Shown: positions 1 to 12,209 of the stretch, piece after piece
Numbering within the stretch: the stretch's first letter is position 1
Layout: every line of letters starts with the position of its first letter
Assembly (NCBI GenBank): GCA_050178385.1
Contig: JBFXGD010000104.1
Coordinates: 1-12,209 of the forward strand
Source: Calditrichaceae bacterium
GTDB taxonomy: Bacteria > Calditrichota > Calditrichia > Calditrichales > JBFXGD01
Reading direction: 5' to 3'
DNA: 12,209 nt
Notes under the pieces: model-generated
Seen by the model: the letters and a program-made list of their open reading frames with translations, nothing else
What the model was told of the DNA's origin: nothing
The model's database searches: none
Made by a program: the position numbers and the translations under genes

Positions 1-1
1 C

Positions 2-960
2 TGGAACGGCGCCGAGACGATCACGTTTACGGCCACCGACCCGGATAATTTGTTTGACAGTGACGCGGGGACCATTACGGTCACGGCGGTCAACGACGCT
101 CCGGTAGTGACGGATATTCCGGATCAGAGTATTGCTGAAGGCGCCAGTTTCGCGACCATCAGTCTTGATGATTATGTAAGCGATGTGGATAATGCCGATA
201 ACGAGATGATATGGAGTGTCATGGATACGGTTGATTTGGTTGTGTCCATTAGTCCTGAAAGAGTCGCGAGTATTATTGTACCCGATGAAAACTGGTTTGG
301 AAGCGAGTCAATAAAATTCATAGCGAGTGACCCGGATGGCGCGAGCGATACGACGACCGTAACTTTTATGGTTGACGCGGTGAATGATTCGCCTGTTCTC
401 AGCGCTTTACTTCCTGATTTCAGTTTTAATGAAGATGATTCACTGACTATAGCGATTTCAACCTGGTTCGATTTGGTTGCGGATCCGGATAATGCCGATT
501 CAGTTCTCACCTATTCTGTTTTATCGGGAAAGTTTTTAACTGTAAAAACAGACTCACTGCTCTTCGTATTTAAAGCTCCTGCAGACTGGTTCGGCTCTGA
601 TACGCTGATGCTGAAAATAAGTGACGGTGAACTTGCGGATTCAGCTAAATTCGCAATCAAAGTGAATCCGTTGAATGACGCCCCATATTTTACAAATCTG
701 CCGGATACGGTGGAATTTATTAATAACGGTTCCGAAGAACTGAACATGAAAGACTTTTACGGAGATATTGATTCACCGGAATCGGGGATGACATGGCAGT
801 TCAGTGTCTCAGATGATACATTAAAACTGGATTTTGATTCTGATATGATGATCCTTACTCTCAGCGCGCCGGCTTATATTGGAACGGTAACATTGTACTT
901 TACATTAACAGATGACAGTTCCGCCAGTGTGAGTGATTCCTTAGTGGTTAAAGTGACTGC
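2..960 (+). repeat. Protein-level tandem cadherin-like/Ig repeats with a 97-aa period
   Basis: The Asn codons of the ND(A/S)P linkers start at 92, 383 and 674, exactly 291 nt apart. A last, more diverged unit ends at VVKVT (about 958). The units are diverged at the nucleotide level. Confidence 0.8.
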
Positions 961-1264
961 GGATCCTACCGGAATTGAGGATATTATCTCAGAGCTTCCG
1001 ACTAAATTTGTCATTGGACAGAACTACCCGAATCCGTTCAATCCAAACACTCATATTCGGTTCGGTTTGCCCTATGCGGGAGAAGTCAGGATAGAAGTAT
1101 ACAATATTCTCGGGCAAAAGGTGGCCACTATTTTTGATGGCTATAAACCGGCTGGTTACCATGTGGTAGATTTCCATGCTAATCAGTTATCAAGCGGGAT
1201 ATATTTTTACAGAATAGAATCCGGTAAGTTTAACGCGGTTAAGAAAATGGTTATTATGAAGTAG
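2..1264 (+). CDS. Secreted cadherin-like/bacterial Ig (tandem-95/Big_9-type) repeat protein with C-terminal T9SS type A-like sorting domain; 5'-partial
   Basis: The frame is open from base 2 (WNGAETITFTATDPDNLFDS...), so the TTG at 50 is not the true start. Repeats end in AVNDAP, AVNDSP and PLNDAP, and carry W(N/F)G and D-rich motifs. The C-terminus FVIGQNYPNPFNPNTHIRFGLP...EVYNILGQKV...LSSGIYFYRI...KKMVIMK (about 1007-1261) is a typical secretion C-terminal domain. Stop TAG at 1262-1264. Confidence 0.9.
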   Translation, partial: WNGAETITFTATDPDNLFDSDAGTITVTAVNDAPVVTDIPDQSIAEGASFATISLDDYVSDVDNADNEMIWSVMDTVDLVVSISPERVASIIVPDENWFGSESIKFIASDPDGASDTTTVTFMVDAVNDSPVLSALLPDFSFNEDDSLTIAISTWFDLVADPDNADSVLTYSVLSGKFLTVKTDSLLFVFKAPADWFGSDTLMLKISDGELADSAKFAIKVNPLNDAPYFTNLPDTVEFINNGSEELNMKDFYGDIDSPESGMTWQFSVSDDTLKLDFDSDMMILTLSAPAYIGTVTLYFTLTDDSSASVSDSLVVKVTADPTGIEDIISELPTKFVIGQNYPNPFNPNTHIRFGLPYAGEVRIEVYNILGQKVATIFDGYKPAGYHVVDFHANQLSSGIYFYRIESGKFNAVKKMVIMK

Positions 1265-1280
1265 ACTAATAATAATTCTC

Positions 1281-1324
1281 CGGGAGTCTGCCCGCAAGTT
1301 GACGCGGACTCCCGTTTTTTATTT
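1281..1324 (+). terminator. Rho-independent terminator
   Basis: CGGGAGTCTGC (1281-1291) pairs with GCGGACTCCCG (1304-1314): 11 bp with one U-G pair and a 12-nt loop. It is followed directly by TTTTTTATTT and starts 17 nt after the stop codon. Confidence 0.88.
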
Positions 1325-1422
1325 CGAATAATCGAATAATTTCTTATTAAAGAACTCCTTTTAAGAAGCACTGAATAATATTTGCAATTAATGATAAATG
1401 AAGCGGCGCGGATAATCAAAAA

Positions 1423-2967
1423 GTGATCCACCAAAAACCATATCTTATTCCTGTATTACTGTTTTTATTCTCATCAATTATATTCTGGGTTACTCAAAGC
1501 CCGATACCCACCAATGGAGACACATATCTTTATGCGCTTGGTGTGGTCCAGCTAAAAGGCCCATTGTTCCATATTGGATATTATTTTATAGGAAATATAT
1601 TTAATTCGGCATTAAGCGTGATTTATACAGACCCGGTGAAAAATCTCGGGCTGATGTCTCTGTTTTCAGGAAGTTTGTCCGTGGTATGGAGCTATCTTTT
1701 TACTAAAAAGCTGACCGGAAATATCCGAATCAGTCTCATTGTAGCGCTGACACTGTTATTCTCCGGGGGGCTCTGGTACTATTCAGCCCATGGTGAAGTA
1801 TATGTACCTCAGTTAAGTATGGTGTTTATATCAATATTAATGGCTGTTTATAATCGTCCGTTATTGAGCAGCCTGGCATTTCTTGTTGCTGTGAGTATAA
1901 CGCCGACATCCGGCCTGATTTTTCCTGCATTAATATATCTAATCATTATAAATGGTAAATCACGCCGGGAGATTTTTTATTTTTTACTGCCCGTAATAAT
2001 AATTTTCCTGTTTTTACTCATTATTAAATGGCCAAAAATTATTCAGATGGTGGATGATGCCGTTTTCTCCCCGGATGTATTTTTTACAAATTTTTCTTAT
2101 TCCGCTTTATTCAGAGAAATATTTTTAAATTTGTCTAAAGTGTACATAAAATCATTTAATTTTTTAATTTTATTTACAATTCCCGGGGCTTTTTATCTTT
2201 ATAGGAACAATAAAAGAATTCTGTTTTTGGTGATCTGCATTTTACTACCTTTTTCACTATATATTTTTAATCTGGGTTTACTTACTGAAGATCATCTCAT
2301 TATTACATTTATTCCGGTTAGTTTGATAATCGCGTTCGGCGTAATCAGTACACTTGACATTATTAAGCTGGGAGATATATCGCGAAGAATACTGATATTA
2401 CTTCTGTTATGCGCTCATGGATTTTTATCATACCAGATTTATATCGGTCCCGAATTGAGAAATTCGGCTGAATTAGAAAAAGTGATGACAAATTTCAGCA
2501 GGGACTATGAAAATGATGGGATTATGATTTCAGAATATAATTTTGGAATGGCCTTTTGGTATTATACCCAAAAAGAAAACGATTACTTTCTGCGGACCGG
2601 CCGGCCAAATTTGTTTTTAGATCCTGGTGATGAGTTATATGAAAAAAAAATAGAACAATTAAAAAACAAATTCTGGATTAATCTTTCGGGAAATCTGGTT
2701 GATTTTTTCACAGTTAAATTAAAAGATAAATCTATTTTTGAGAACCGGCCTGTTTATTTCGTGGACCGGTCCGATTGGCCCTCTGCAATTGTTAAAAATA
2801 TTTTGCCTGAGCGACAACTAAGAGAAAGAGAAAATAAGATAAGAAAAATTGATCGCTTTTCTGATTATCTGGCAAGTGTATTAAACAGCAGAACCAGCTA
2901 CCTTCAGATTTATGATTCACCTTTGCATCCGATATATCAAATCCGGCTGTTGGATCCAATAAAATGA
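1423..2967 (+). CDS. Polytopic membrane GT-C-fold glycosyltransferase, DUF2723/TMEM260-like (ArnT/PMT_2 superfamily)
   Basis: 514 aa, GTG start. About 10-11 hydrophobic segments lie in the first ~340 aa, followed by a soluble C-terminal domain. The first loop has an acidic GD motif (PTNGDTYLY, about 1516). WYYSAHGEVY (1774-1803) resembles the W..A...EVY motif of DUF2723-type proteins. Confidence 0.68.
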   Translation: MIHQKPYLIPVLLFLFSSIIFWVTQSPIPTNGDTYLYALGVVQLKGPLFHIGYYFIGNIFNSALSVIYTDPVKNLGLMSLFSGSLSVVWSYLFTKKLTGNIRISLIVALTLLFSGGLWYYSAHGEVYVPQLSMVFISILMAVYNRPLLSSLAFLVAVSITPTSGLIFPALIYLIIINGKSRREIFYFLLPVIIIFLFLLIIKWPKIIQMVDDAVFSPDVFFTNFSYSALFREIFLNLSKVYIKSFNFLILFTIPGAFYLYRNNKRILFLVICILLPFSLYIFNLGLLTEDHLIITFIPVSLIIAFGVISTLDIIKLGDISRRILILLLLCAHGFLSYQIYIGPELRNSAELEKVMTNFSRDYENDGIMISEYNFGMAFWYYTQKENDYFLRTGRPNLFLDPGDELYEKKIEQLKNKFWINLSGNLVDFFTVKLKDKSIFENRPVYFVDRSDWPSAIVKNILPERQLRERENKIRKIDRFSDYLASVLNSRTSYLQIYDSPLHPIYQIRLLDPIK

Positions 2968-3020
2968 AAAGATATTTATTTTTAAGCAAAATGAAAATGT
3001 ATCCGGATAAATTTAACCAA

Positions 3021-3026
3021 AAGGAG
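3021..3026 (+). promoter_or_regulatory. Shine-Dalgarno site of the nadE-like gene
   Basis: AAGGAG with a 5-nt spacer to ATG 3032. Confidence 0.75.
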
Positions 3027-3031
3027 TTCAT

Positions 3032-3988
3032 ATGAATTTTACCCGCGAATCTATTTATATAGATGCAGAAAAAGAAGCAGGTATTATTATTGAAAAACTC
3101 AAAACCGATGTTTTTCATAAACTAAAAAGACGTGGCGCGGTAATTGGAATAAGCGGAGGAATTGATTCTTCAGTTGTGATGGCATTATGCGCGCGCGCTT
3201 TTGGACCGGAAAAGGTGCTGGGCGTGATGATGCCCGAAAATGATTCAAATCCTGACAGCCTGGAACTGGCGAAAAAACTGGCTGATAAATTTAATGTAAA
3301 ATATGAAATTGAGAATATGACGGATGCTCTCTCCGGTTTTGGTTGTTACAGGCGACGGGATGAAGCCATCAAACGCGTTTTTCCGGAATTTAATCAGAAA
3401 TATAAAGCAAAAATTACCTTGTCCACCGATATTTTGAATAAAGACACTCTCAATCTTTTTCATTTAAAAATTATTGCGCCGGATGGTACGGAAAAAACAA
3501 CCCGTCTGCCTATCAGGGAATATTTACAAATTGTCGCCGCGTCAAATTTTAAGCAGAGAAGCCGGATGAGCATGTTATATTATCACGCGGAGGCAAAAAA
3601 TTGGGCGGTTATGGGTACAGGAAACAAAAATGAGCACGAACAGGGTTTTTTTGTAAAGTATGGTGATGGAGGTGCCGATAGTAAACCTATAGCGCATTTA
3701 TTTAAAACACAGGTTTTCCAATTAGCTGAATATCTTGAAGTTCCAATTGAAATTCAAAACAGAACGCCGACGACTGATACATACAGCGCCGAACAAACAC
3801 AGGAAGAATTTTTCTTTAGGTTGCCTTTTGACATACTTGACAGAATTTGGCATGGCTGGGAACAAAATGTCCCGGTCGCGCAGATCGCGGCCGCGCTTGA
3901 TTTAAAACCGGATCAGGTGCAGAATGTTATAAATGATATCAAACGTAAAATATCAGCGACTGAATATCTTAGAATGGAACCATTGTAA
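3032..3988 (+). CDS. nadE: NH3-dependent NAD(+) synthetase family protein (NadE; atypical, cluster-associated paralog type)
   Basis: PP-loop GISGGIDSSV, VLGVMMP, GTGNKNE..QGFFVKYGDGGAD, PIAHLFKTQVFQLAEYL and RTPTTD. There is no N-terminal glutaminase domain. NFKQRSRM replaces the canonical N.(K/Q)AR.RM. Confidence 0.88.
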   Translation: MNFTRESIYIDAEKEAGIIIEKLKTDVFHKLKRRGAVIGISGGIDSSVVMALCARAFGPEKVLGVMMPENDSNPDSLELAKKLADKFNVKYEIENMTDALSGFGCYRRRDEAIKRVFPEFNQKYKAKITLSTDILNKDTLNLFHLKIIAPDGTEKTTRLPIREYLQIVAASNFKQRSRMSMLYYHAEAKNWAVMGTGNKNEHEQGFFVKYGDGGADSKPIAHLFKTQVFQLAEYLEVPIEIQNRTPTTDTYSAEQTQEEFFFRLPFDILDRIWHGWEQNVPVAQIAAALDLKPDQVQNVINDIKRKISATEYLRMEPL

Positions 3989-4089
3989 AAAAATCTTTTT
4001 TACGAAAATTCATCTTTCAGACAATCTCTCATACGCAGGTAAAGAATGAGTAAGAATTGTGCGCGAGACGAATAGAAAGTAGCTACTGC

Positions 4090-5061
4090 ATGAGGCAAAC
4101 TGTACTATTAACAGGAGCCAGTGGATTCATTGGTTTCCATACCGCGGCGAATTTGCTGGATAGAGGATATAATGTCGTAGCGCCGGTCAGAAAAAACGCT
4201 TTTCAATCCTGCAGAGTAGTGCAACTGATCTCAAAAGGCATGCAGTTTGTAGAAGGTGAGTTCCATGATAAGCAGCTGCTGGATACGTTATTCAGCTATA
4301 ATATCGATTCGGTAATTCATCTGGCGTCTATAAGAGGCCAGACAAAAACAGATCCACGGGAGTATCATCGAATTAACGTTGTAGGTACACAAAACCTTAT
4401 CGCTAAATCAATCGAACATAAGGTCAAAAAATTTGTATACTGCAGTTCGGTAGGAGTTTACGGAACGATTCCGGCATCATTGCCCGCTAAGACAGATAGT
4501 GACTATCATGGAGATAATTATTACCATTTAAGCAAGGTAGAAGCGGAGAAGAGGGTTCTTCAGGCAAAAGAATACGGATTGAATACCACTATCATTCAAC
4601 CCACAGTGACATACGGGTTATATGATGATGGGTTTATACCTAAATTAGCTCATATGGTTAAACATCATCACTTAGTTATTCCGAACCGGCCGGTTCTGAT
4701 CCATCTGATCTGGGTGGAAAAATTAGCAGAGCTGTTCAGACGGGCGATTGAAAAAAATTTGCCTAAAGAAAAATACATCGTTGCGGATAAGCGAGCCGTA
4801 AATTTGTTAAACCTGGTCAATATTTTTCATCGGTCTGCAAAAAAATCGGTATATCCTTCATGGTTAATGGCTCCTGAAAAATTTTTCCGTTTAGGAGAAA
4901 AAGGACTCCAGACTCTGAGAATGTCCGGGATGTTGGTCAGTCTTCAGCTTATAAGCAGAAATTGGTATTATCAGATTGATGATACTATACGCGATTTTAA
5001 TTATAAACCGGTGGATACACTGGAAAAAATAGAATCTTTAATCACGAACGGGGATATCTAA
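4090..5061 (+). CDS. NAD-dependent epimerase/dehydratase (extended SDR; 3-beta-HSD/HpnA-like)
   Basis: TGASGFIG Rossmann motif, VIHLAS, INVVGTQNL, catalytic Ser region YCSSVGVYG and YxxxK (YHLSK). ATG 4090 is preferred over TTG 4057 because it puts the GxxGxxG motif at its usual N-terminal position. Confidence 0.88.
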   Translation: MRQTVLLTGASGFIGFHTAANLLDRGYNVVAPVRKNAFQSCRVVQLISKGMQFVEGEFHDKQLLDTLFSYNIDSVIHLASIRGQTKTDPREYHRINVVGTQNLIAKSIEHKVKKFVYCSSVGVYGTIPASLPAKTDSDYHGDNYYHLSKVEAEKRVLQAKEYGLNTTIIQPTVTYGLYDDGFIPKLAHMVKHHHLVIPNRPVLIHLIWVEKLAELFRRAIEKNLPKEKYIVADKRAVNLLNLVNIFHRSAKKSVYPSWLMAPEKFFRLGEKGLQTLRMSGMLVSLQLISRNWYYQIDDTIRDFNYKPVDTLEKIESLITNGDI

Positions 5062-5949
5062 TTGCAATCCACAAACAGCATCGGGCAGGATATTGATGCC
5101 TGGTTAGTGAAAAGACTGCCGATCGTCGGGAATTGGGAAAGTTATTTTTCTGATCATGATGAGGGATTGGGAACAACCTACGAACGGTTTATTCTTCACA
5201 ATTATTTTACAACAATTAAAAACCAGTTTGACATAAAATCTATTATTGAAGTACCCTCTTTTGGAATGACCGGTGTTTCCGGGATAAACAGTTTATGGTG
5301 GGCAAAACAGGGGATTAAAACAACTGTGGTAGATGTAAACGCGGATCGTTTAAATCATATAAAAAAAGTATGGAGTGATATTCCGCTGAAAGCGGATTTC
5401 ATGCTGACTGAAAAGTTGAATGCCCTGCCATTTTCTGATAAATCAATCGACTGCTCATGGAATTTCGCTTCTTTGTGGTTTGTTGATGATTTGGATAAAT
5501 TCTTAACTGAATTGTCAAGAATTACGAAAAAAGTAATTTTTATATCCGTGCCAAATAGAAACGGTCTGGGATTTCTGCTTAGGTTTGGTTTTCGCTTAAA
5601 AAATAAAGATAATTTTTTTCTGAACCATATTCTGCCTTCAAAAATCATTAAAATTCTGAAATTAAAAAATTGGAAACTCCTGGATGAAGGATATTTTGAT
5701 ATTCCGCCTTGGCCTGATATTCCGATGAAAAAGGAAGATTTGTTCAGGAAATTAGGATTGGGCTTTATTTTTAAAGATAAAAAATCAAAAAATGAGAACC
5801 CGGAAGAGATGTGTATTCTCAATTATTTTAACGGAACTCAGCCGGAAATGGAAAAGAAAATATTAAAATATTCAATTCTGGAAAGAAGCCCCTTCCCGGT
5901 AAAAAACTTATGGGGACACCACCGGTATTTTATATTTGTACCGGAATAA
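5062..5949 (+). CDS. Class I SAM-dependent methyltransferase domain protein (atypical motif I)
   Basis: Motif I-like IIEVPSFGMTGVSG, acidic post-beta2 VVDVN, LPFSDKSIDCSWNFASLWF (Methyltransf_11-like), ELSRITKKVIFISVPN. The TTG start directly follows the SDR TAA, with GGGGA at 5050-5054. Confidence 0.78.
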   Translation: MQSTNSIGQDIDAWLVKRLPIVGNWESYFSDHDEGLGTTYERFILHNYFTTIKNQFDIKSIIEVPSFGMTGVSGINSLWWAKQGIKTTVVDVNADRLNHIKKVWSDIPLKADFMLTEKLNALPFSDKSIDCSWNFASLWFVDDLDKFLTELSRITKKVIFISVPNRNGLGFLLRFGFRLKNKDNFFLNHILPSKIIKILKLKNWKLLDEGYFDIPPWPDIPMKKEDLFRKLGLGFIFKDKKSKNENPEEMCILNYFNGTQPEMEKKILKYSILERSPFPVKNLWGHHRYFIFVPE

Positions 5950-6095
5950 TATGATTTTTACTATACTTGACGTTTTCCTTATCTAATCTAAATGAACATG
6001 GCGATGTTGCGTCACAATACAAATAATTATCCTGGATAATCAGCCGTATTATAAATAATCGAAGATCAATTTATTTATCAATATAAAAGGGTACG

Positions 6096-7004
6096 ATGAA
6101 TATTGAAGTATCTGTCGTCATCCCGTCTTACAATTCTGCCGGCACAATAACCGCCTGTCTTAACAGTCTGATGAGACAGGATTATGATAAATCATTCGAA
6201 ATCACGGTTGTAGATAGTTCAACAGATAATACAGCACAAATTATTACTGCCGGTTTCCCCGAAGTCAAGGTGATTCGCTGTAAGAGAAAAACGGATCCGG
6301 GAACCGCCCGTAATATGGGGGTCAATGTATCGCATGGGAAATATATAATGTTTCTGGATTCTGATTGTATTGCCGGAAATGATTGGGTCAGTAGAATCAT
6401 CCGGGTATATGAATCTCCTGATTATGATGCCGTAGGGGGTAGTATTTATCCGGCAAATCCGGAAACTGATGTGGTTGGCTGGGCGGGATATATTGCGGAG
6501 TTCAGGGAATTTATACCCGGGCATCCTGCCGCGATACGTGATCACCTGCCGACATGCAACCTTAGTTACCGCAGGGATAAATTTCTGGAAGTTGGCAATT
6601 TTAATGCGGCTTATTACCCGCAGGAAGATTTGTTTTTCAATCATCATTTCACAAAAAACGGGTTTAAAATATTTTTTGATCCGGAGATAAAGGTATTTCA
6701 TTTTCACAGAAATAAATTGGCTTATTTTTTAAAACATCAGAAAAATATCGGGTATATCACTTCCAGTTTACTAAAAAAAATCGACCTTGAAGGATCGAGG
6801 TTGGTAAGGCATAAGTTTTTAGCCCTTATAAATCTGCCATTGCTGCCGTTTATAAAATTTTACAGGACATTAGCCGTATTCGCAAAAGTTAATCCGGCAA
6901 TAATAAAGGCACATATTCTCTCGTTTCTGGTGTTTGCCCTGGGACTTGTTCCATGGACACTGGGATTTGCAAAAGGCTTGTTAGCCCCAAAATTTGATGA
7001 CTAG
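6096..7004 (+). CDS. Family 2 glycosyltransferase with C-terminal membrane-associated segments
   Basis: VSVVIPSYN, VVDSSTD, ARNMG, DxD motif FLDSDC, CNLSYRR, QED catalytic region and a hydrophobic C-terminus. Confidence 0.92.
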   Translation: MNIEVSVVIPSYNSAGTITACLNSLMRQDYDKSFEITVVDSSTDNTAQIITAGFPEVKVIRCKRKTDPGTARNMGVNVSHGKYIMFLDSDCIAGNDWVSRIIRVYESPDYDAVGGSIYPANPETDVVGWAGYIAEFREFIPGHPAAIRDHLPTCNLSYRRDKFLEVGNFNAAYYPQEDLFFNHHFTKNGFKIFFDPEIKVFHFHRNKLAYFLKHQKNIGYITSSLLKKIDLEGSRLVRHKFLALINLPLLPFIKFYRTLAVFAKVNPAIIKAHILSFLVFALGLVPWTLGFAKGLLAPKFDD

Positions 7005-7030
7005 TACATCAATTTTAATCACTTATTTGC

Positions 7031-7036
7031 AAGGAG
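7031..7036 (+). promoter_or_regulatory. Shine-Dalgarno site supporting the TTG start at 7045
   Basis: AAGGAG with an 8-nt spacer to TTG 7045. Confidence 0.7.
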
Positions 7037-7044
7037 TATAAACT

Positions 7045-8802
7045 TTGAATCCTTGTATTGTCATTCCGACATATAATGAATCTGAAAAACTCGCCACGCT
7101 GATTGCGACTATTCATTATTTTGACGAAAAATACGCGATCATCATTGTGGATGATAATTCCCCTGATGGAACCGGCGATATCGCGGATCGACTTTCGAAA
7201 AAATATGAAAAAATACATGTGATTCACCGACCCGGGAAAATGGGAGTCGGGGGCGCTATATTGGATGGGTTCCGCCTGGCTCTGGAAGAAAAATATGATC
7301 CGATCATCACTATGGATGCGGATCTTTCTCATTCTCCTCTATATCTCAAAAAATTTCTTTCCTTTTCAAAGTATTATGATCTGGTTATTGGTAGTCGTTA
7401 TTTCCGGGGAATCAGAATTGACGGCTGGCGGTTCAGAAAATTGCTGCAGAGCAAACTCGCTAATATGTTTATATCATATGTAATGGTAAAGCCAATTTGG
7501 GATTTTACAACCGGTTATAGAAGCTATTCCGCTACTTTTCTAAAAAAATTAAATTTAAACGTGATTCCAAGCGAGGGGTATCTTTTTCAGATTCATATGA
7601 TTTACCTGGCGTTTCTTCTTAAAAAAAATGTCAAGGAAATTCCGATTATATTTAAGGATATCGAAAATCCTGAGTCAAAAATCAGTTCACGGGACCGCTG
7701 GGTAACTTTCCGAAAAATATTTAGTTATCGTGCTCCATTCTCAGAAATGTTCAGACATTTTACGTATATCAAAAAAGATTACAGGCGATTTGTAGATGAA
7801 TATGAAGAGCTTTTAAATCCGCCTCAGCCAAAGAACGCGGGAAAGTTTTCGATTCCGGAAAAATTTACCGTCAGTATCGGTGTGATGGCCTATAATGAAG
7901 AGTTAAATATCAAGAAATGTCTGAACGCCTTGCTTAATCAGGAATTAAAATCAGGCGAAATAGTAGAATTAACTGTCGTTTCATCTGGATCAACTGATCG
8001 TACAAATGAAATTGTTGAAAAGTATTCTCTTCAGGATTCACGGGTTCAGCTCATTGTCGAACGTCAGCGGCAGGGAAAGGCATCGGCCATCAATAAATTT
8101 CTTAAATACGCAAAAGGTGATATCGCCATTATTGAAAGCGCTGATACGATTACAGAGCCTAAGACGGTTGAGTATCTAATAAGCCCTTTTTTCGATCCAA
8201 AAGTAGGGATTACCGGGGCTCATCCCCAACCTGTAAACAAAGGTAGCGGTTTTATTACATTCGCCGTCCAAAAACTCTGGCATTTACATCACCTGATGGC
8301 TCTTGACAATCCAAAATGCGGAGAGATGATCGCTTTTAGAAATATTGTGCCGAGAATTCCGACTTACACGGCGGTGGATGAGGCGACGATAGAGGCGCTT
8401 TTTAATGAGCTCGGTCTTGAAAAAAGATATGCGCCTGAGGCAATAGTTAAAAACAAGGGACCGGAAACACTCCGTGATTTCATCAAGCAAAGACGAAGGA
8501 TAGCTGCCGGGCACAAACATCTCAAAGCCATAAAGGGTCATGCGGTATCAACTATGAAGGCAAGCAACATCCTGAAGTATGTCGGGAAAGATCTCGATTT
8601 TAGGCCAAAGTATCTTATATATATGTTTCTTTTGATCTGTACTGAATTGTTTTCAAGAATTTTAGGTCATCTTGATTTTTACTTTAGAGATAAAAATCCA
8701 TATATTTGGGATATATCTAAATCGACAAAACATATTGCTGAACAAAATGTGCTGAAACCTCAGGCAGAGCAGAAATCCAAAGGCCGGATTCCTTCTGTTT
8801 GA
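7045..8802 (+). CDS. Two-domain GT2 fusion: N-terminal DPM1/Ppm1-like polyprenol-phosphate sugar (mannose) synthase plus C-terminal CESA-like GT2
   Basis: Domain 1 (about 7045-7750): IVIPTYNE, VDDNSPDGT, HRPGKMGVG, MDADLSHSP, IGSRY, DFTTGYR, GYLFQI, EIPIIF. Domain 2 (about 7864-8730): VSIGVMAYNEE, SSGSTDRT, GKASAIN, ESADT, CGEMIAFR, QRRRI, then one hydrophobic segment. Confidence 0.88.
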   Translation: MNPCIVIPTYNESEKLATLIATIHYFDEKYAIIIVDDNSPDGTGDIADRLSKKYEKIHVIHRPGKMGVGGAILDGFRLALEEKYDPIITMDADLSHSPLYLKKFLSFSKYYDLVIGSRYFRGIRIDGWRFRKLLQSKLANMFISYVMVKPIWDFTTGYRSYSATFLKKLNLNVIPSEGYLFQIHMIYLAFLLKKNVKEIPIIFKDIENPESKISSRDRWVTFRKIFSYRAPFSEMFRHFTYIKKDYRRFVDEYEELLNPPQPKNAGKFSIPEKFTVSIGVMAYNEELNIKKCLNALLNQELKSGEIVELTVVSSGSTDRTNEIVEKYSLQDSRVQLIVERQRQGKASAINKFLKYAKGDIAIIESADTITEPKTVEYLISPFFDPKVGITGAHPQPVNKGSGFITFAVQKLWHLHHLMALDNPKCGEMIAFRNIVPRIPTYTAVDEATIEALFNELGLEKRYAPEAIVKNKGPETLRDFIKQRRRIAAGHKHLKAIKGHAVSTMKASNILKYVGKDLDFRPKYLIYMFLLICTELFSRILGHLDFYFRDKNPYIWDISKSTKHIAEQNVLKPQAEQKSKGRIPSV

Positions 8803-8896
8803 TAGTCTTGTCGAATTTGATTATCGATATTCCATGTCCCGGATTAAAAATTGGACACAATTCTGCAATCAAATCTTAAAAATGTGAGGATAATGT

Positions 8897-9775
8897 ATGG
8901 ATCCGAAGTATGATTTTTCTACAGAGTACCAGATATTTAAATCAATGGTTGATGAAAAAATTGAAAATTACTGGGGAGAAGAAGAACCACTCCTGGAAGG
9001 TCTTTACAAATCCATTAATTATTCTCTGAACGACGGAAAGAGAGTACGCGCGCTTTTTGCTTTTCTGGTTGGTGAGATATTTGATGTTAAACCCGAGAAA
9101 TTACTTTCAACGGCTGTCGCCATAGAGATGATTCATGCAGCGTCTCTGATTATGGATGATCTTCCCTATATGGATAATGCCGAGTTAAGACGAGGTAAAC
9201 CGGCGAATCATATTGTGTTCGGGCAGGATGTGGCGCTGTGTGCCAGCATTGCGCTGATTTCTGAAGCGAACAGGCTTGTTTTGAGCGATCAGGGACTGGG
9301 GCTTGACGAGCGGAACCGGGCTTCGAATCTGTTGGGCGCGTCATTCGGAATCAAAGGACTGGCAGCAGGTCAGTATGTGGATCTCAAGCTAAAGCGCAAA
9401 AATATTAAATATGAGATTATCGAGTTTATCAATGCCAAAAAAACAGCCGCATTGTTTACGGCGGCGGGAGAGATTGCCGCGATTATCGGTCACGCTTCGG
9501 ATAAGCAACTGGAGGCGATTAAAGTATTTTCTGAGAATGTCGGTTTCGCTTTTCAAATAACAGATGATATTCTGGATGTCAAAGGTGATGAGAAATTAGT
9601 GGGCAAAGATCTGAATAAAGATAAAATGAATTTTGTCCGGCTGGTCGGTATGAAGGAAGCGGAAAAATATGCCAAAACATATATAAACACTGCTAAAAGC
9701 GCCATGGCCATATTCAAGGACAAAGGGAAAAAAATTATTGAATTTGGTGATTACCTTATAAACAGAGGCTATTAA
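8897..9775 (+). CDS. Short-chain trans-polyprenyl diphosphate synthase (IspA/CrtE family), probably geranylgeranyl diphosphate synthase
   Basis: GKRVR, FARM HAASLIMDDLPYMD..RRGKP, GQYVD, KTAALF, SARM FQITDDILD and GKD. The small Ala at -5 of the FARM is CrtE-like; FPP synthases usually have Tyr/Phe there. RBS GAGGA at 8886-8890. Confidence 0.9.
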   Translation: MDPKYDFSTEYQIFKSMVDEKIENYWGEEEPLLEGLYKSINYSLNDGKRVRALFAFLVGEIFDVKPEKLLSTAVAIEMIHAASLIMDDLPYMDNAELRRGKPANHIVFGQDVALCASIALISEANRLVLSDQGLGLDERNRASNLLGASFGIKGLAAGQYVDLKLKRKNIKYEIIEFINAKKTAALFTAAGEIAAIIGHASDKQLEAIKVFSENVGFAFQITDDILDVKGDEKLVGKDLNKDKMNFVRLVGMKEAEKYAKTYINTAKSAMAIFKDKGKKIIEFGDYLINRGY

Positions 9776-9818
9776 TTCACCGAAAGAGTATACTGCATTT
9801 TATAAAATAAACTAATTT

Positions 9819-9860
9819 CAGGGAGCCTCATTGGTCACACAGTGAGGCTTGTACCTGTTT
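9819..9860 (+). terminator. Stem-loop after the polyprenyl synthase (weak terminator or mRNA-processing/stabilising hairpin)
   Basis: AGCCTCATTG (9824-9833) pairs with CAGTGAGGCT (9840-9849) with one U-G pair. CAGG (9819-9822) and CCTG (9854-9857) extend the stem across a 3-nt bulge. Only TTT follows. Confidence 0.45.
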
Positions 9861-9976
9861 AAATATTCCTGCCGAACTTTTTTTCCATTTTATGTGCTGA
9901 AAATCAATCTCATATCAACGAGATGACCTATCTTGTTTAATAGGATTCAAAGTAAAATTAAGATAAAACGGTAAAA

Positions 9977-11014
9977 ATGCTAAACATCCTTCAAAAAACT
10001 CTTGGATGGCGAAATTGGGCGGTATTTTCCTATAACTCATTTATCGAAAATATTTTTGTTGTTTTTTATATCGCGCTAGTCACAAGAAATTATTCAAACG
10101 CATTTCTTATTAATTTGCTGTTATTTTATATTTTTAGCGTTTTCTCAACTTCGTTTGGATACCTGATAAACGATCTGGCCGATCGTGAACTTGACAGAAA
10201 ACACAATAAATCAAATACTTTCGAAAACACGAACGAAAGAGTCGCGATTAGCGTGGTTATTGCCGTTTTTGTATTAAGCGCTATGCCGGCGATAAATTTT
10301 ATCTCTAATCGTTATTTCGCCTTTTTGTGGATACTGTGGACTTTGGCGGCGGTATTCTACTCTGTGAAGCCCGTAAGGTTGAAGGAAAGGGGAAAAACAG
10401 GACTCATCGTAGTCGTTTTTGCGCAGAGAGTACTGCCTGTGCTGCTCGTATTCGCGGCTTTCAGATTCAATAATCTCACAGATATAATGCTAATTACCTT
10501 CTACATCCTGATGCGCGGTCTTTCGTCAGATGTTAATCATCAAATTGAAGATTTTAATTCGGATCTGAAAACATCAACCGGCACATTCGCGGTAACCGCG
10601 GGACTGGAAAGGATCAGGCGCGTGTTCCATCTGATTCTGGAAGTCGAAAAATTATTACTTGCGGCCGTATTGCTGCTTTTCGTGCTGCGTTTTCAGGATT
10701 ACCCCGCCGGATATTCGGTAAATACCGGTATCCTGGCAATAATTTATCTTATCATACTCATTATAAGTTATTTCAGGATCCGCGGTGGAGCAGACCGGAA
10801 TCCGTTCAGGATTCATGAAAAAAATATATTTCAATTTCTGCATCATGCTTACCCGTCTGTGATTCTCCCTCTGGCACTCATTATCATCATTATACCAAAT
10901 AATATGCTCTTTGCCCTTGTACTTCTTGCATTCTTGTTCAATAAAAAAATGCTGAGTTTAAAAACGTATATCAATAGTTATCCGTTGTTATTCTTAAAAA
11001 AGATGAGGCAATGA
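9977..11014 (+). CDS. UbiA-superfamily integral membrane prenyltransferase
   Basis: About 9 hydrophobic segments. First Asp-rich motif YLINDLADRELD (N to last D 10169-10195), FYSVKPVRLKERG (YSxxPxRLK) and second motif HQIEDFNSD...TFAV (10538-10564). Confidence 0.88.
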   Translation: MLNILQKTLGWRNWAVFSYNSFIENIFVVFYIALVTRNYSNAFLINLLLFYIFSVFSTSFGYLINDLADRELDRKHNKSNTFENTNERVAISVVIAVFVLSAMPAINFISNRYFAFLWILWTLAAVFYSVKPVRLKERGKTGLIVVVFAQRVLPVLLVFAAFRFNNLTDIMLITFYILMRGLSSDVNHQIEDFNSDLKTSTGTFAVTAGLERIRRVFHLILEVEKLLLAAVLLLFVLRFQDYPAGYSVNTGILAIIYLIILIISYFRIRGGADRNPFRIHEKNIFQFLHHAYPSVILPLALIIIIIPNNMLFALVLLAFLFNKKMLSLKTYINSYPLLFLKKMRQ

Positions 11015-12209
11015 GTGGTTATATTATCTTCAGAATAATAATTAGCATTTTCGCCCTTTTGATCTTTGTTCTGGAATCCTATGCTCAGCTTGATTTAAAA
11101 AGGGATGATTATGTGGGGACGACGCGTCGCGCATGGTGGAGCTGGTGGGGTGATGGAAGCAATACGCCGCTGCCGTCAGTCAATAATGGTTATGTTCTGT
11201 TTTCACTGGTTGACCCCATCGCATCTGAAAGACCATTTTCTGATTCGGCCTTGTGGGACGGATATCCGGGAATAGGTGGGCCCTACCTGAACTGCAAAAT
11301 AAAACTGCGGGCAAAATCCCTGAATCCGCATAAGTATGGTTCACGAGGCTGGGGCCTTTGGTACAGTGAGCCTCAGCCAAACATACAGAATCAGGCATGG
11401 TATATGATGGTTCTTGATGATCCTTTGTTGACAGGGCTGGACTGGTGGCGGGCGGAAACTGCAGATGGTAAAACAGAAGCCAAACATCATTTTGTGGAGC
11501 TTGATCAATCGCCGCATATTATAGATGATCAGCAATGGCATGTATATGAAATAGATCGACAGACTGATTATATTGAATTCAAAATTGACGGCGTTCAGGT
11601 TTTTTATGCCACACAGGATGTTCCTATACGACCAATGGCTTTTCATATCTGGGTGGATAATGTGGTTTATGAACATGTGGAGCCTGATATAATCAATTTA
11701 AACCTGCGCGAATGGACCGGAAAGAATGAGATCGTTCTGGATTATGTCCAGATTCTCACCACTGGACAACTTGATAAAAGCGAGCCGGCATCCGGTATCA
11801 AACTACTGAGACATGTACCGGTTGAGATATATGATAAAGAGATTGCTGATTCCTGGTACACATTAAATTTTGACGCTCCGGGTGGCCAGGTGGTTGTTTT
11901 GAGTACGGCGCGTGTGGAACAGTATCTGAACGCGTTTAATCAGCCAATCAGCGATGATGATGATATCCGTTATGTCATTGATGGCACCGATTATGGATGG
12001 GATACGCCAAATTCATTTAATGCCGACGCGCAGGGAACGCTTTCTAATACCTTGCTCTTTGAAAAAACATTGGGAGCAGGCGTAGCGAATATTGATGTTT
12101 ACGGTGAAATATCTCCTCTTTTATATGATGTCACGGTTCTCGGAAGCAGTGGAGGGGGCATTGTTTTTAATCAGGAATACAATGAAATAAAATCTTCATC
12201 CAGTCCGGA
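11011..12209 (+). CDS. Secreted protein with N-terminal GH16/ConA-like beta-jelly-roll domain; 3'-partial and absent from the supplied ORF track
   Basis: The ATG overlaps the UbiA stop (ATGA 11011-11014), and there is no stop through the window end (399 codons). It begins MSGYIIFRIIISIFALLIFVLESYA|QLDLK (Sec signal peptide). GH16-like elements are IKLRAK, GSRGWGLWY, WHVYEIDRQTDYIEFKIDG, PIRPMAFHIW and IVLDYVQI. Confidence 0.85.
   Translation, partial: MSGYIIFRIIISIFALLIFVLESYAQLDLKRDDYVGTTRRAWWSWWGDGSNTPLPSVNNGYVLFSLVDPIASERPFSDSALWDGYPGIGGPYLNCKIKLRAKSLNPHKYGSRGWGLWYSEPQPNIQNQAWYMMVLDDPLLTGLDWWRAETADGKTEAKHHFVELDQSPHIIDDQQWHVYEIDRQTDYIEFKIDGVQVFYATQDVPIRPMAFHIWVDNVVYEHVEPDIINLNLREWTGKNEIVLDYVQILTTGQLDKSEPASGIKLLRHVPVEIYDKEIADSWYTLNFDAPGGQVVVLSTARVEQYLNAFNQPISDDDDIRYVIDGTDYGWDTPNSFNADAQGTLSNTLLFEKTLGAGVANIDVYGEISPLLYDVTVLGSSGGGIVFNQEYNEIKSSSSP

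Follow-up and report, generated by a model that had tools for sequence, protein, structure and literature searches.

The window and its GT-C enzyme

We analysed a 12.2-kb stretch of DNA from a Calditrichaceae bacterium (contig JBFXGD010000104.1, positions 1 to 12,209), referred to below as the window, with attention to a membrane glycosyltransferase of the GT-C type (g2, 1423..2967, + strand) and to the gene set that surrounds it. Ten open reading frames (ORFs) of at least 80 aa were read (g1 to g10); they fill the 12.2-kb window and every one lies on the + strand. An earlier note on this DNA had described, up to position 8802, a same-strand cluster that it took for a candidate protein O-mannosylation system in which a DUF2723/TMEM260-like GT-C enzyme and a DPM1-like donor synthase would act on an adjacent Ig-repeat protein. 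All of the sequence features on which that description was built were located at the coordinates it had given, and the clustering on one strand was borne out by the ten + strand ORFs and extends beyond 8802 to genes for a polyprenyl synthase, a UbiA-family prenyltransferase and a secreted protein. The window holds most of a conserved operon, which runs from 1423 to at least 12207.

The product of g2 is a polytopic protein of 514 aa. After about 11 transmembrane (TM) helices it ends in an alpha/beta domain on the periplasmic side (residues about 362-514), and neither Pfam nor NCBIfam gave a family for it above threshold. A word-indexed search with g2 returned 47 homologues at E <= 0.001, 40 of which were aligned (alignment A1); one homologue (P0014) has a precomputed PF11028 label and another bears the name 'glycosyltransferase family 39' in its source. 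The 'GD' (N31-G-D33) and 'W...EVY' (W118...G124-E125-V126-Y127) motifs to which the earlier note had drawn attention are both present. Residues N31, D33, H50, G52, Y53, G124-E125-V126-Y127, P129 and Q130 are invariant in the 40 homologues, as are T160, P161, D290 and H291, while W118 is nearly invariant (at least 90% of the 40); the invariance of these columns makes the 'GD' and 'EVY' motifs the most conserved parts of the protein. A basic residue (K/R) is conserved at position 264, and the C-terminal domain keeps D/E371 (90%), R394 (93%), R442 (100% basic) and D/E448 (93%).

An AlphaFold model of g2 calculated from A1 was confident (predicted local distance difference test [pLDDT] 92.8, pTM 0.90) and consists of a helical core and the alpha/beta domain. 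When this model was compared with the Protein Data Bank (PDB) by Foldseek, all 25 matches at E <= 0.001 were GT-C enzymes, with STT3/PglB/AglB, ALG12, ALG9 and ArnT at a TM-score by query (TMq) of 0.44-0.54 and DPY19 at 0.38; the TMEM260 structure 9rql was not among the 49 matches listed. Because oligosaccharyltransferases (OSTs), ALG12, ArnT and ALG9 all fall in the range 0.44-0.54, the Foldseek comparison settles the fold and not the subfamily. The modelled TM module, with D33 invariant in 40/40 homologues in the first extracytoplasmic loop, also has the features of the GT-C superfamily, and the assignment of g2 as a GT-C fold enzyme is thereby confirmed at the level of the predicted structure.

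The subfamily was approached through profiles. Against PF11028 (DUF2723) g2 scored 10.7 bits (E 0.44), which is below the gathering threshold of 24.2, and it gave no PF02366 or PF13231 (GT39 PMT) match even at E <= 10. Among the 40 aligned family members 24 match PF11028 at E <= 1 (best E 5.7e-5), and no other GT-C model recurs save for three weak EpsG matches. When 1.84 billion representatives, proteins of every length among them, were searched exhaustively with the profile, there were 605 matches at E <= 0.001, 157 at <= 1e-10 and 49 at <= 1e-30; none of these 49 exceeds 546 aa and the top-scoring full-length family matches listed measure 445-546 aa, which argues that no form fused to tetratricopeptide repeats (TPR) exists in the g2 family proper. 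For g2 itself the Pfam scan gave no TPR match, and the model ends in the compact alpha/beta domain. When 70 more distant full-length relatives were scanned with Pfam, 48 had no family at E <= 0.01, and the matches in this set were to PMT (10), GT87 (10), PF11028 (four), Mannosyl_trans4 (two) and PMT_2 (one), most of them weak and below cut-off.

Among the distant relatives, P0185 carries TPR repeats and, at 121 bits, is a genuine member of PF11028; hhalign aligned A1 to it over 265 columns with a probability of 98.1% (E 1.3e-13), as against a probability of 30.8% for the PMT_2-type GT-C enzyme of a related locus (L002). Six of the ten structural neighbours in the ESM Atlas were PF11028 clusters (TM-score by query 0.67-0.73), with alignments that span g2 from residue 1 or 25 to beyond 470, two were PMT_2 and two were unnamed; the 30 Atlas matches by language-model features included eight PMT_2, 18 unnamed and three from a PF11028-majority cluster. 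By hhalign and the Atlas, g2 is thus closer to bona fide PF11028 members than to other GT-C families. A direct sequence match to TMEM260 was also considered: the A1 profile found 9rql among PDB sequences at E 1.4 (g2 residues 61-137 against 70-147, with GEVY over AEVF), beside a chance match to a pantothenate synthetase at E 0.91, and we set the TMEM260 match aside as too weak alone. By these comparisons g2 is best described as a founder or member of a GT-C family for which no model exists and which has DUF2723/TMEM260-like proteins as its closest relatives with a name. The family label of the earlier note stands as far as nearest named relatives are concerned (hhalign, six of ten in the Atlas, 24 of 40 by Pfam), and it does not stand as Pfam membership (10.7 against 24.2 bits) or as a TPR-bearing architecture; the grouping with ArnT, Gtr or Aft types, which that note had named as an outcome that would speak against its view, was not observed.

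The cryo-EM preprint on TMEM260 (10.64898/2026.03.17.711096) describes 11 TM helices, a sugar-recognition motif formed by D52 and H67, a donor-loading loop carrying R264 and Y267, a luminal Rossmann-like domain with the catalytic base D441, and TPR 'fingers' that grip an extended acceptor peptide. Candidate counterparts in g2 of D52/H67, the loop Arg/Tyr and D441 are D33, H50, K/R264, D/E371 and D/E448, in a comparison for which the HMMER alignment spans residues 61-137 only. The g2 protein is like TMEM260 in its GT-C fold of about 11 TM helices followed by an extracytoplasmic alpha/beta domain, in the invariant Asp and His of loop 1, and in the W...(A/G)EV(F/Y) stretch that aligns with TMEM260 70-147; it differs in having no TPR, in falling below the PF11028 cut-off and in lying inside an operon with isoprenoid and glycan genes.

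Gene content and recurrence of the neighbourhood

The gene that pairs with g2 in this analysis is g7 (7045..8802, + strand), which joins in one protein a DPM1/dolichol-phosphate-mannose synthase (DPMS)-like domain (residues about 3-226) and another GT2 domain (about 270-500). Residues 3-226 (nt about 7051-7722) align over 224 residues to the Pyrococcus furiosus DPMS 5mlz at E 2e-24, with MDADLSHSP of g7 over MDADLQHPP of 5mlz so that the DAD motif is kept, and the next-best match, ArnC, lies at E 1.9e-9. The protein scores 190 bits against PF00535, and as a GT-A domain with a DAD motif that is homologous to a characterised Dol-P-Man synthase it has the features of the DPM1/DPMS type, so that the DPM1/Ppm1-like domain reported earlier for 7045-7750 is secure. 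The equivalogs AglJ, ArnC, dolichyl-P-hexose transferase and PpgS were all matched far below their NCBIfam cut-offs, and mannose is therefore our best guess for the sugar and not a result. The domain resembles P. furiosus DPMS and eukaryotic DPM1 over its 224 residues and in the MDADL(S/Q)H motif; it differs from them in that g7 has no C-terminal TM helices of its own (no hydrophobic segment was seen in the DPMS-like domain by hydropathy) and is fused to a second GT2, for which the matches are PgaC- or GpgS-like. The fusion is one 585-aa protein in the window and in L001 (94% identity), both Calditrichaceae, and the two domains are encoded by neighbouring, distinct genes in L008, L010 and L013 and likewise by two ORFs in L002, L005 and L012; in L009 two high-scoring segment pairs of g7 were seen, by tblastn only. 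The split pair is overlapping or adjacent in L010 (6167-7833) and L013 (6162-7848) and lies more than 1 kb apart in L012 (4189-7217).

The related loci come from one pattern-seeded scan of 185,579 species genomes, which yielded 14 loci, and they were read by tblastn with the ten window proteins and by Pfam/NCBIfam scans of the flanking ORFs. They are drawn from five contigs of Calditrichaceae metagenome-assembled genomes (MAGs), two Omnitrophota, one PVC-group MAG, four MAGs labelled Thermodesulfobacteriota, 'Deltaproteobacteria' or Desulfobacteraceae, one Desulfacyla, and two Syntrophorhabdus, including the isolate S. aromaticivorans UI. L001, at 87% identity, is fully syntenic. Outside Calditrichaceae, a short-chain dehydrogenase/reductase (SDR) gene lies directly upstream of the GT-C gene and a methyltransferase gene directly downstream of it in 10/10 loci, and a g6-type GT2 gene follows in 9/9 loci that reach that far. 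The DPMS-like GT2 and its partner GT2 lie upstream in every one of the seven loci outside Calditrichaceae whose upstream flank measures 4 kb or more, and the DPMS-like GT2 is linked to the GT-C gene in the window and L001 as well; the linkage described in the earlier note is conserved. A UbiA gene lies downstream in five of the six loci with enough downstream flank (L002, L008, L010, L012 and L013; absent in L005), and a homologue is also present in the window and L001.

Further genes recur around this core. A radical-SAM/SPASM gene stands between the GT2 pair and the SDR gene in L002, L005, L008, L010, L012 and L013; L008 and L010 carry polyprenyl synthase homologues, a gene that L001 also has; and Wzx-like MOP flippases are encoded downstream in L008, L010 and L013. 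Extra isoprenoid genes were found in single loci, namely GGR-like (L002), CrtI/CrtD-like (L008), CrtC-like (L010) and DXP synthase (L013). The gene set recurs in Calditrichota, Omnitrophota, a PVC-group MAG, Desulfobacterota-type MAGs and Syntrophorhabdus, and the locus counts together with the flanking gene content show a conserved unit that is larger than, and different from, the one found by the earlier note. Three observations concern individual copies of the GT-C gene. In L002 a second GT-C enzyme of the PMT_2 type (13233-14921; PF13231, 54.9 bits) lies between the g6-type GT2 and UbiA genes, which suggests two periplasmic transfer steps there. In the S. aromaticivorans UI draft (L013, 9962-11502) the GT-C homologue lies in two frames, 9962-10741 and 10738-11502, as the result of either a frameshift or a sequencing error. 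One Calditrichaceae MAG (L006 and L007) has two distinct GT-C copies, 42% and 39% identical to g2.

The isoprenoid module of the window consists of two genes. The first, g8 (8897..9775, + strand), encodes a short-chain trans-polyprenyl diphosphate synthase of the farnesyl/geranylgeranyl diphosphate (FPP/GGPP) type (PF00348, E 3.9e-45), for which the FPPsyn and CrtE models of NCBIfam match below cut-off; the context of its first aspartate-rich motif (FARM) is IHAASLIMDDLPYMD, which we take to resemble that of CrtE-type GGPP synthases. The second, g9 (9977..11014, + strand), encodes a UbiA-family membrane prenyltransferase (PF01040, 56.8 bits against a cut-off of 34.2) whose NDxxDxxxD and DxxxD motifs are intact in an alignment of seven cluster UbiA proteins (A2). 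The UbiA profile matched only chlorophyll a synthase in the PDB (E 1.4e-5) and no decaprenyl-phosphate phosphoribosyltransferase (DPPRS) at E <= 10, and NCBIfam ranks PRK12875 and ChlG above the DPPRS models for the cluster UbiA proteins; phmmer of UbiA against the PDB gave no match, and the ESM Atlas returned generic UbiA clusters only. The chlorophyll synthase match, the ChlG ranking, the CrtE-like FARM context and the GGR-like genes in relatives favour prenyl transfer, and at the level of these comparisons a true (C20-type) prenyl transfer by g9 is the favoured activity; the adjacent GGPP-type synthase suggests that its donor is a prenyl diphosphate.

The remaining operon genes were identified as follows. 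An extended SDR of the epimerase/dehydratase type is encoded by g4 (4057..5061, + strand; PF01370, E 1.6e-33) and has TGASGFIG and YxxxK motifs, and its best NCBIfam matches are HpnA, GalE, OleD and SdmB, all below cut-off. It is followed by g5 (5062..5949, + strand; PF08241), a class I S-adenosylmethionine (SAM) methyltransferase whose homologues in other lineages are 40-50% identical and, by tblastn, directly downstream of the GT-C gene, and by g6 (6096..7004, + strand; PF00535, E 8.3e-30), a GT2 glycosyltransferase in which hydropathy marks a hydrophobic segment towards the C-terminus (residues about 265-296) and which has homologues 45-48% identical in related loci. Pfam agrees with the earlier identification of these three genes. 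None of the specific NCBIfam equivalogs reached its cut-off with the proteins of the GT2, SDR, methyltransferase, UbiA and radical-SAM types.

One gene went unmentioned in the earlier note. This is g3 (3032..3988, + strand), an NH3-dependent NAD synthase-type ATP-pyrophosphatase (NadE) that scores 448.8 bits against NF002048 (NCBIfam cut-off 313) and matches NadE structures in the PDB (best E 3.8e-31). A NadE gene occupies this position only in the window and L001, with no tblastn match in any of the 10 non-Calditrichaceae loci; in the window it stands between the GT-C and SDR genes, so that the SDR gene no longer adjoins the GT-C gene. The NadE gene may be a housekeeping insertion or encode a co-opted ATP-dependent amidating enzyme. 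Scans of the window for Rfam families and tRNA genes found neither, and the simple promoter scan (41 against 38.7 in shuffles) and terminator scan (8 against 10.4) did not differ from shuffled sequence. The longest intergenic space in the operon is the 201 nt between the polyprenyl synthase and UbiA genes (9776-9976), in which no Rfam family and, by scan, no terminator was found.

The two secreted proteins

The window begins and ends with genes for exported proteins. The upstream one, g1 (2..1264, + strand, open at its 5' end), is the 3' part of a gene for a secreted repeat protein with Big_9, Cadherin_5 and Cadherin_4 / tandem-95 repeats, and it ends in a type A C-terminal sorting domain (CTD) for secretion by the type IX system (T9SS), with PF18962 at 43.7 bits (E 3.4e-11) and TIGR04183, for which the cut-off is 23, at 47.5 bits; both scores exceed their thresholds. 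It is thus T9SS cargo by its sorting domain, and the cadherin-like repeat protein that the earlier note placed directly upstream of the cluster was recovered with its repeats and this sorting domain. Downstream of it lies a hairpin of the Rho-independent terminator type (1281..1324, + strand) composed of an 11-bp stem and a 12-nt loop (about 1281-1313) followed by U6/T6. Its RNAfold energy is -22.1 kcal/mol (z -3.36), and only one of 200 shuffles was as stable, so the terminator reported between g1 and the cluster is real by this measure; it was missed by the simple terminator scan because that scan takes loops of 3-8 nt only. We therefore regard g1 as probably a neighbour and not part of the operon.

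The distribution of g1 was narrow. No homologue was found by tblastn beside the GT-C gene in any of the 10 non-Calditrichaceae loci; in L001 identity is 89% over residues 26-420, and elsewhere only the CTD matches, in the Calditrichaceae loci L007 and L014. A gene with a T9SS CTD does lie upstream of the GT-C gene in the window, L001, L007 and L014, which are the four loci of Calditrichaceae where upstream flank is available, and these represent at most two independent arrangements. In L007 and L014 a gene of 268-269 aa intervenes between the two and the similarity to g1 is confined to the CTD. A regular expression for the TMEM260-type sequon found none in g1 and none in g10. In g1 there are 10 D-(S/T)-(A/I/L/V/M/T) tripeptides in 420 aa as a raw count; this tripeptide is the general O-glycosylation motif of Bacteroidota, and it may or may not have the same role in Calditrichota. 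The proposal that the Ig-repeat neighbour is the substrate does not hold up well, given its position behind a terminator, its absence from the non-Calditrichaceae loci and its lack of a sequon.

The downstream gene, g10 (11011..12207, + strand, open at its 3' end), encodes a signal-peptide protein with a GH16/ConA-like beta-jelly-roll and then a second beta-sandwich. Its start overlaps the stop of g9 by 4 nt and it is translationally coupled to that gene. The g10 model (pLDDT 80.3) has GH16 as its top structure matches, and there is no NCBIfam family for the protein. Full-length homologues are about 610 aa long, with FlgD-Ig (PF13860) in 13 of 18 and a T9SS CTD (PF18962) in 10 of 18. Those in Calditrichia end in FlgD-Ig and a T9SS CTD (L001, 10975-12890). 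A homologue 36% identical to g10 follows UbiA in S. aromaticivorans (L013, by tblastn), and this Syntrophorhabdus protein (14596-17121) carries InlB B-repeat, CBM96 and DNRLRE domains. The catalytic motif of GH16 enzymes is ExDxxE; on reading the sequence and the invariant columns we found no conserved ExDxxE in g10, and we therefore do not claim GH16 enzymatic activity for it. As a partner of the glycosylation genes g10 is a better candidate than g1, and it could bind or process a glycan or be itself a substrate for glycosylation.

Proposed pathway, acceptor and significance

Because the gene set recurs together with isoprenoid-lipid genes, its product is probably a cell-envelope glycoconjugate rather than a simple mannosylation of the neighbouring secreted protein, and the co-conserved genes for UbiA, the GGPP-type synthase, the radical-SAM enzyme, the flippase and extra GT2 enzymes point to a lipid-anchored glycan. 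Our preferred reading, held tentatively and at a little short of an even chance, is that the operon encodes a hitherto uncharacterised pathway to an isoprenoid-linked glycoconjugate of the envelope, in which one step, of the polyprenol-phosphate-sugar plus GT-C type, takes place in the periplasm. At the cytoplasmic face the N-terminal domain of g7 would load a hexose, with mannose as the best guess, from a nucleotide sugar onto polyprenol phosphate, while alongside this g8, as the GGPP-type synthase, and g9, as a ChlG/DGGGPS-like UbiA protein, would make an isoprenoid-anchored acceptor. This acceptor would be glycosylated by g6 and by the second GT2 domain, at the C-terminal end of g7, and tailored by the SDR g4 and the methyltransferase g5, and in other lineages by the radical-SAM/SPASM enzyme too. 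The lipid-linked species would then be flipped, by a Wzx-like MOP flippase of the kind that is encoded in related loci and not in the window, and outside the cytoplasm g2 would transfer the sugar from the polyprenol-phosphate donor to the acceptor by means of its invariant D33/H50 and its periplasmic alpha/beta domain. As acceptor we propose the product of the co-conserved genes, a lipid-anchored glycan or glycolipid, and not the upstream T9SS repeat protein; at the cell surface this glycan may be bound or processed by the GH16-like T9SS cargo g10. Two details of the comparisons above also count in favour of this reading: three of the best matches of the SDR (HpnA, OleD and SdmB) are lipid-acting enzymes, and PMT and GT87, each matched, mostly weakly, in 10 of the 70 distant GT-C relatives, are families that use polyprenol-phosphate-mannose and act on lipoglycan as well as protein acceptors.

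GtrA/GtrB/GtrC, ArnC/ArnT, CsbB/GtcA/YfhO and Ppm1/Pmt are three-component periplasmic glycosylation systems, and the present locus is like them in that a GT2 polyprenol-phosphate-sugar synthase neighbours a GT-C enzyme. It differs in that the window has no small GtrA/SMR flippase (nor any flippase gene of its own beside those of the synthase and the GT-C enzyme, in contrast to the Wzx-like genes of L008, L010 and L013), in that the synthase is without TM helices and fused to a GT2, in the family of the GT-C enzyme, and in the extra conserved SDR, methyltransferase, radical-SAM and UbiA genes.

Several points weigh against the glycoconjugate pathway. Beyond fold and family it is read from gene content, and the window itself shows neither a flippase-like ORF nor a radical-SAM gene in the ORF list and Pfam scan. 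The specific NCBIfam equivalogs for UbiA are all far below cut-off. In L005 no UbiA gene lies in the 10 kb downstream, and the polyprenyl synthase occurs only in the window, L001, L008 and L010, so that the isoprenoid module is not strictly universal. All loci except L013 are MAG contigs, and the set of 14 goes back to a single scan. Finally, TMEM260, the sole characterised relative of the GT-C enzyme, glycosylates protein, according to two papers on it (PMC10214176; 10.64898/2026.03.17.711096).

This last point leads to the alternative that survives best, a bacterial protein O-mannosylation of the TMEM260 type, which we consider possible and on balance unlikely. In it, g7 makes polyprenol-phosphate-mannose and g2 mannosylates Ser/Thr of exported beta-sandwich proteins, the best substrate being the co-operonic T9SS cargo g10 and a less likely one g1, and the other glycosyltransferases, the SDR and the methyltransferase extend or decorate the glycan. 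The GT-C enzyme is indeed closest to TMEM260-like proteins and the DPMS-like domain closest to a true Dol-P-Man synthase, and the loop-1 Asp/His and the alpha/beta domain with conserved acidic residues parallel D52/H67 and D441 of TMEM260 as these are described in the cryo-EM preprint (10.64898/2026.03.17.711096). A T9SS-CTD gene precedes the GT-C gene in 4/4 Calditrichaceae loci with upstream flank, g10 is T9SS-type cargo with Ig-like domains, a start that overlaps the UbiA stop and a Syntrophorhabdus homologue, and the initiating transferase of general O-glycosylation in Bacteroidota is still undiscovered according to a recent review (PMC12871550). Yet the TPR, which is the peptide-binding part of TMEM260, is absent; g1 is separated by its terminator, lacks the sequon and is found in 0/10 non-Calditrichaceae loci; in L007 and L014 another gene intervenes and only the CTD is similar; and g10 homologues are near the cluster in only two lineages. 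Simple protein O-mannosylation, as the earlier note had it, also leaves the co-conserved UbiA, GGPP-type synthase, radical-SAM, GGR/Crt-like, Wzx flippase and extra GT2 genes unaccounted for. Of that interpretation as a whole, the conserved pairing of a TMEM260-related GT-C enzyme with a DPMS-like synthase is what stands, and the Ig-repeat neighbour as its substrate is the weak part. The bolder form of the claim, namely that this would be the first bacterial TMEM260-type O-mannosylation pathway beyond actinobacterial Pmt, with a TPR-less GT-C enzyme that mannosylates beta-sandwich proteins and above all g10, we judge less probable still.

A three-component pentofuranose system of the Kelly/Whitfield kind appears improbable to us. 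Here UbiA would be a polyprenyl-phosphate phosphoribosyltransferase, the SDR would epimerise polyprenyl-phosphate-ribofuranose, and the GT-C enzyme would add the pentofuranose after flipping to a glycan made by the GT2 enzymes. The combination of UbiA, a GalE-like SDR, a MOP/MATE-superfamily flippase and a GT-C enzyme mirrors the published system of Kelly et al. 2024, in which a polyprenyl-phosphoribose synthase of the UbiA type works with an SDR epimerase, a MATE flippase and a GT-C enzyme to add pentofuranoses in the periplasm (PMC11127046). With these PPPRS/MATE/GT136 systems and the mycobacterial DPA pathway the gene set shares UbiA, an epimerase-type SDR, a MOP flippase (in relatives) and a GT-C enzyme in one locus; the UbiA proteins also give weak NCBIfam matches to the decaprenyl-phosphate phosphoribosyltransferase (E 1.1e-4 in the window and 1.7e-7 in L002), and a metallophosphoesterase gene follows UbiA in L012. 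The difference from those systems is that UbiA here is not detectably DPPRS-like, as evidenced by its profile, which misses the DPPRS structures at E <= 10 and finds chlorophyll synthase only, and by the ChlG and PRK12875 models, which outscore those of DPPRS; moreover, Pfam found no PRP or HAD phosphatase domain for a phosphoribose phosphatase in the window, the GGPP-type synthase next door suggests a prenyl diphosphate donor for UbiA, and the conserved DPMS-like hexose donor synthase already provides a lipid-linked donor.

Equally doubtful is a role for g2 as an oligosaccharyltransferase, ligase or polymerase that moves a flipped lipid-linked oligosaccharide en bloc to protein or glycan while the DPMS-like enzyme supplies a side-branch sugar only, for although STT3, PglB and AglB are the best Foldseek matches in the PDB (E 2.6e-6 to 2e-5, TMq 0.44-0.54), Wzx-like flippases and several GT2 genes accompany related loci and a Bac_transf phosphoglycosyltransferase gene lies directly upstream in L005, the Foldseek scores do not split OSTs from ALG12 (TMq 0.51), ArnT (0.49) or ALG9, the sequence profiles favour the monosaccharide-transferring DUF2723, PMT and GT87 families, the Pfam/NCBIfam scans show no conserved initiating phosphoglycosyltransferase in the cluster, and no WWDYG-type motif was seen in g2 on reading the sequence.

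To our knowledge, bacterial DUF2723/TMEM260-like proteins are without a described function. In the literature searched, no paper describing this cluster was found and DUF2723 was mentioned only by the human TMEM260 paper, which notes only 'distant homologs in bacteria' (PMC10214176). A 2025 review counts the OTase, the ligase and the core flippase of O-glycosylation in Bacteroidota among the parts still to be discovered (PMC12871550), and if the acceptor of g2 were a protein the operon would bear on the missing transferase of that type of glycosylation; were TMEM260-type O-mannosylation to be true, candidates for the transferase that initiates general O-glycosylation in bacteria with a T9SS (FCB group) would include DUF2723-type enzymes. 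What the locus offers on any of these readings is a distinct, TPR-less branch of the DUF2723 lineage within a multi-lineage gene set, with a DPMS-like synthase alongside and usually isoprenoid-lipid genes, and thus a concrete, clonable operon for asking what the bacterial relatives of TMEM260 glycosylate. It also raises the question of whether an isoprenoid-anchored glycoconjugate that has so far gone unrecognised is shared by these lineages, most of them uncultured and apparently anaerobic.

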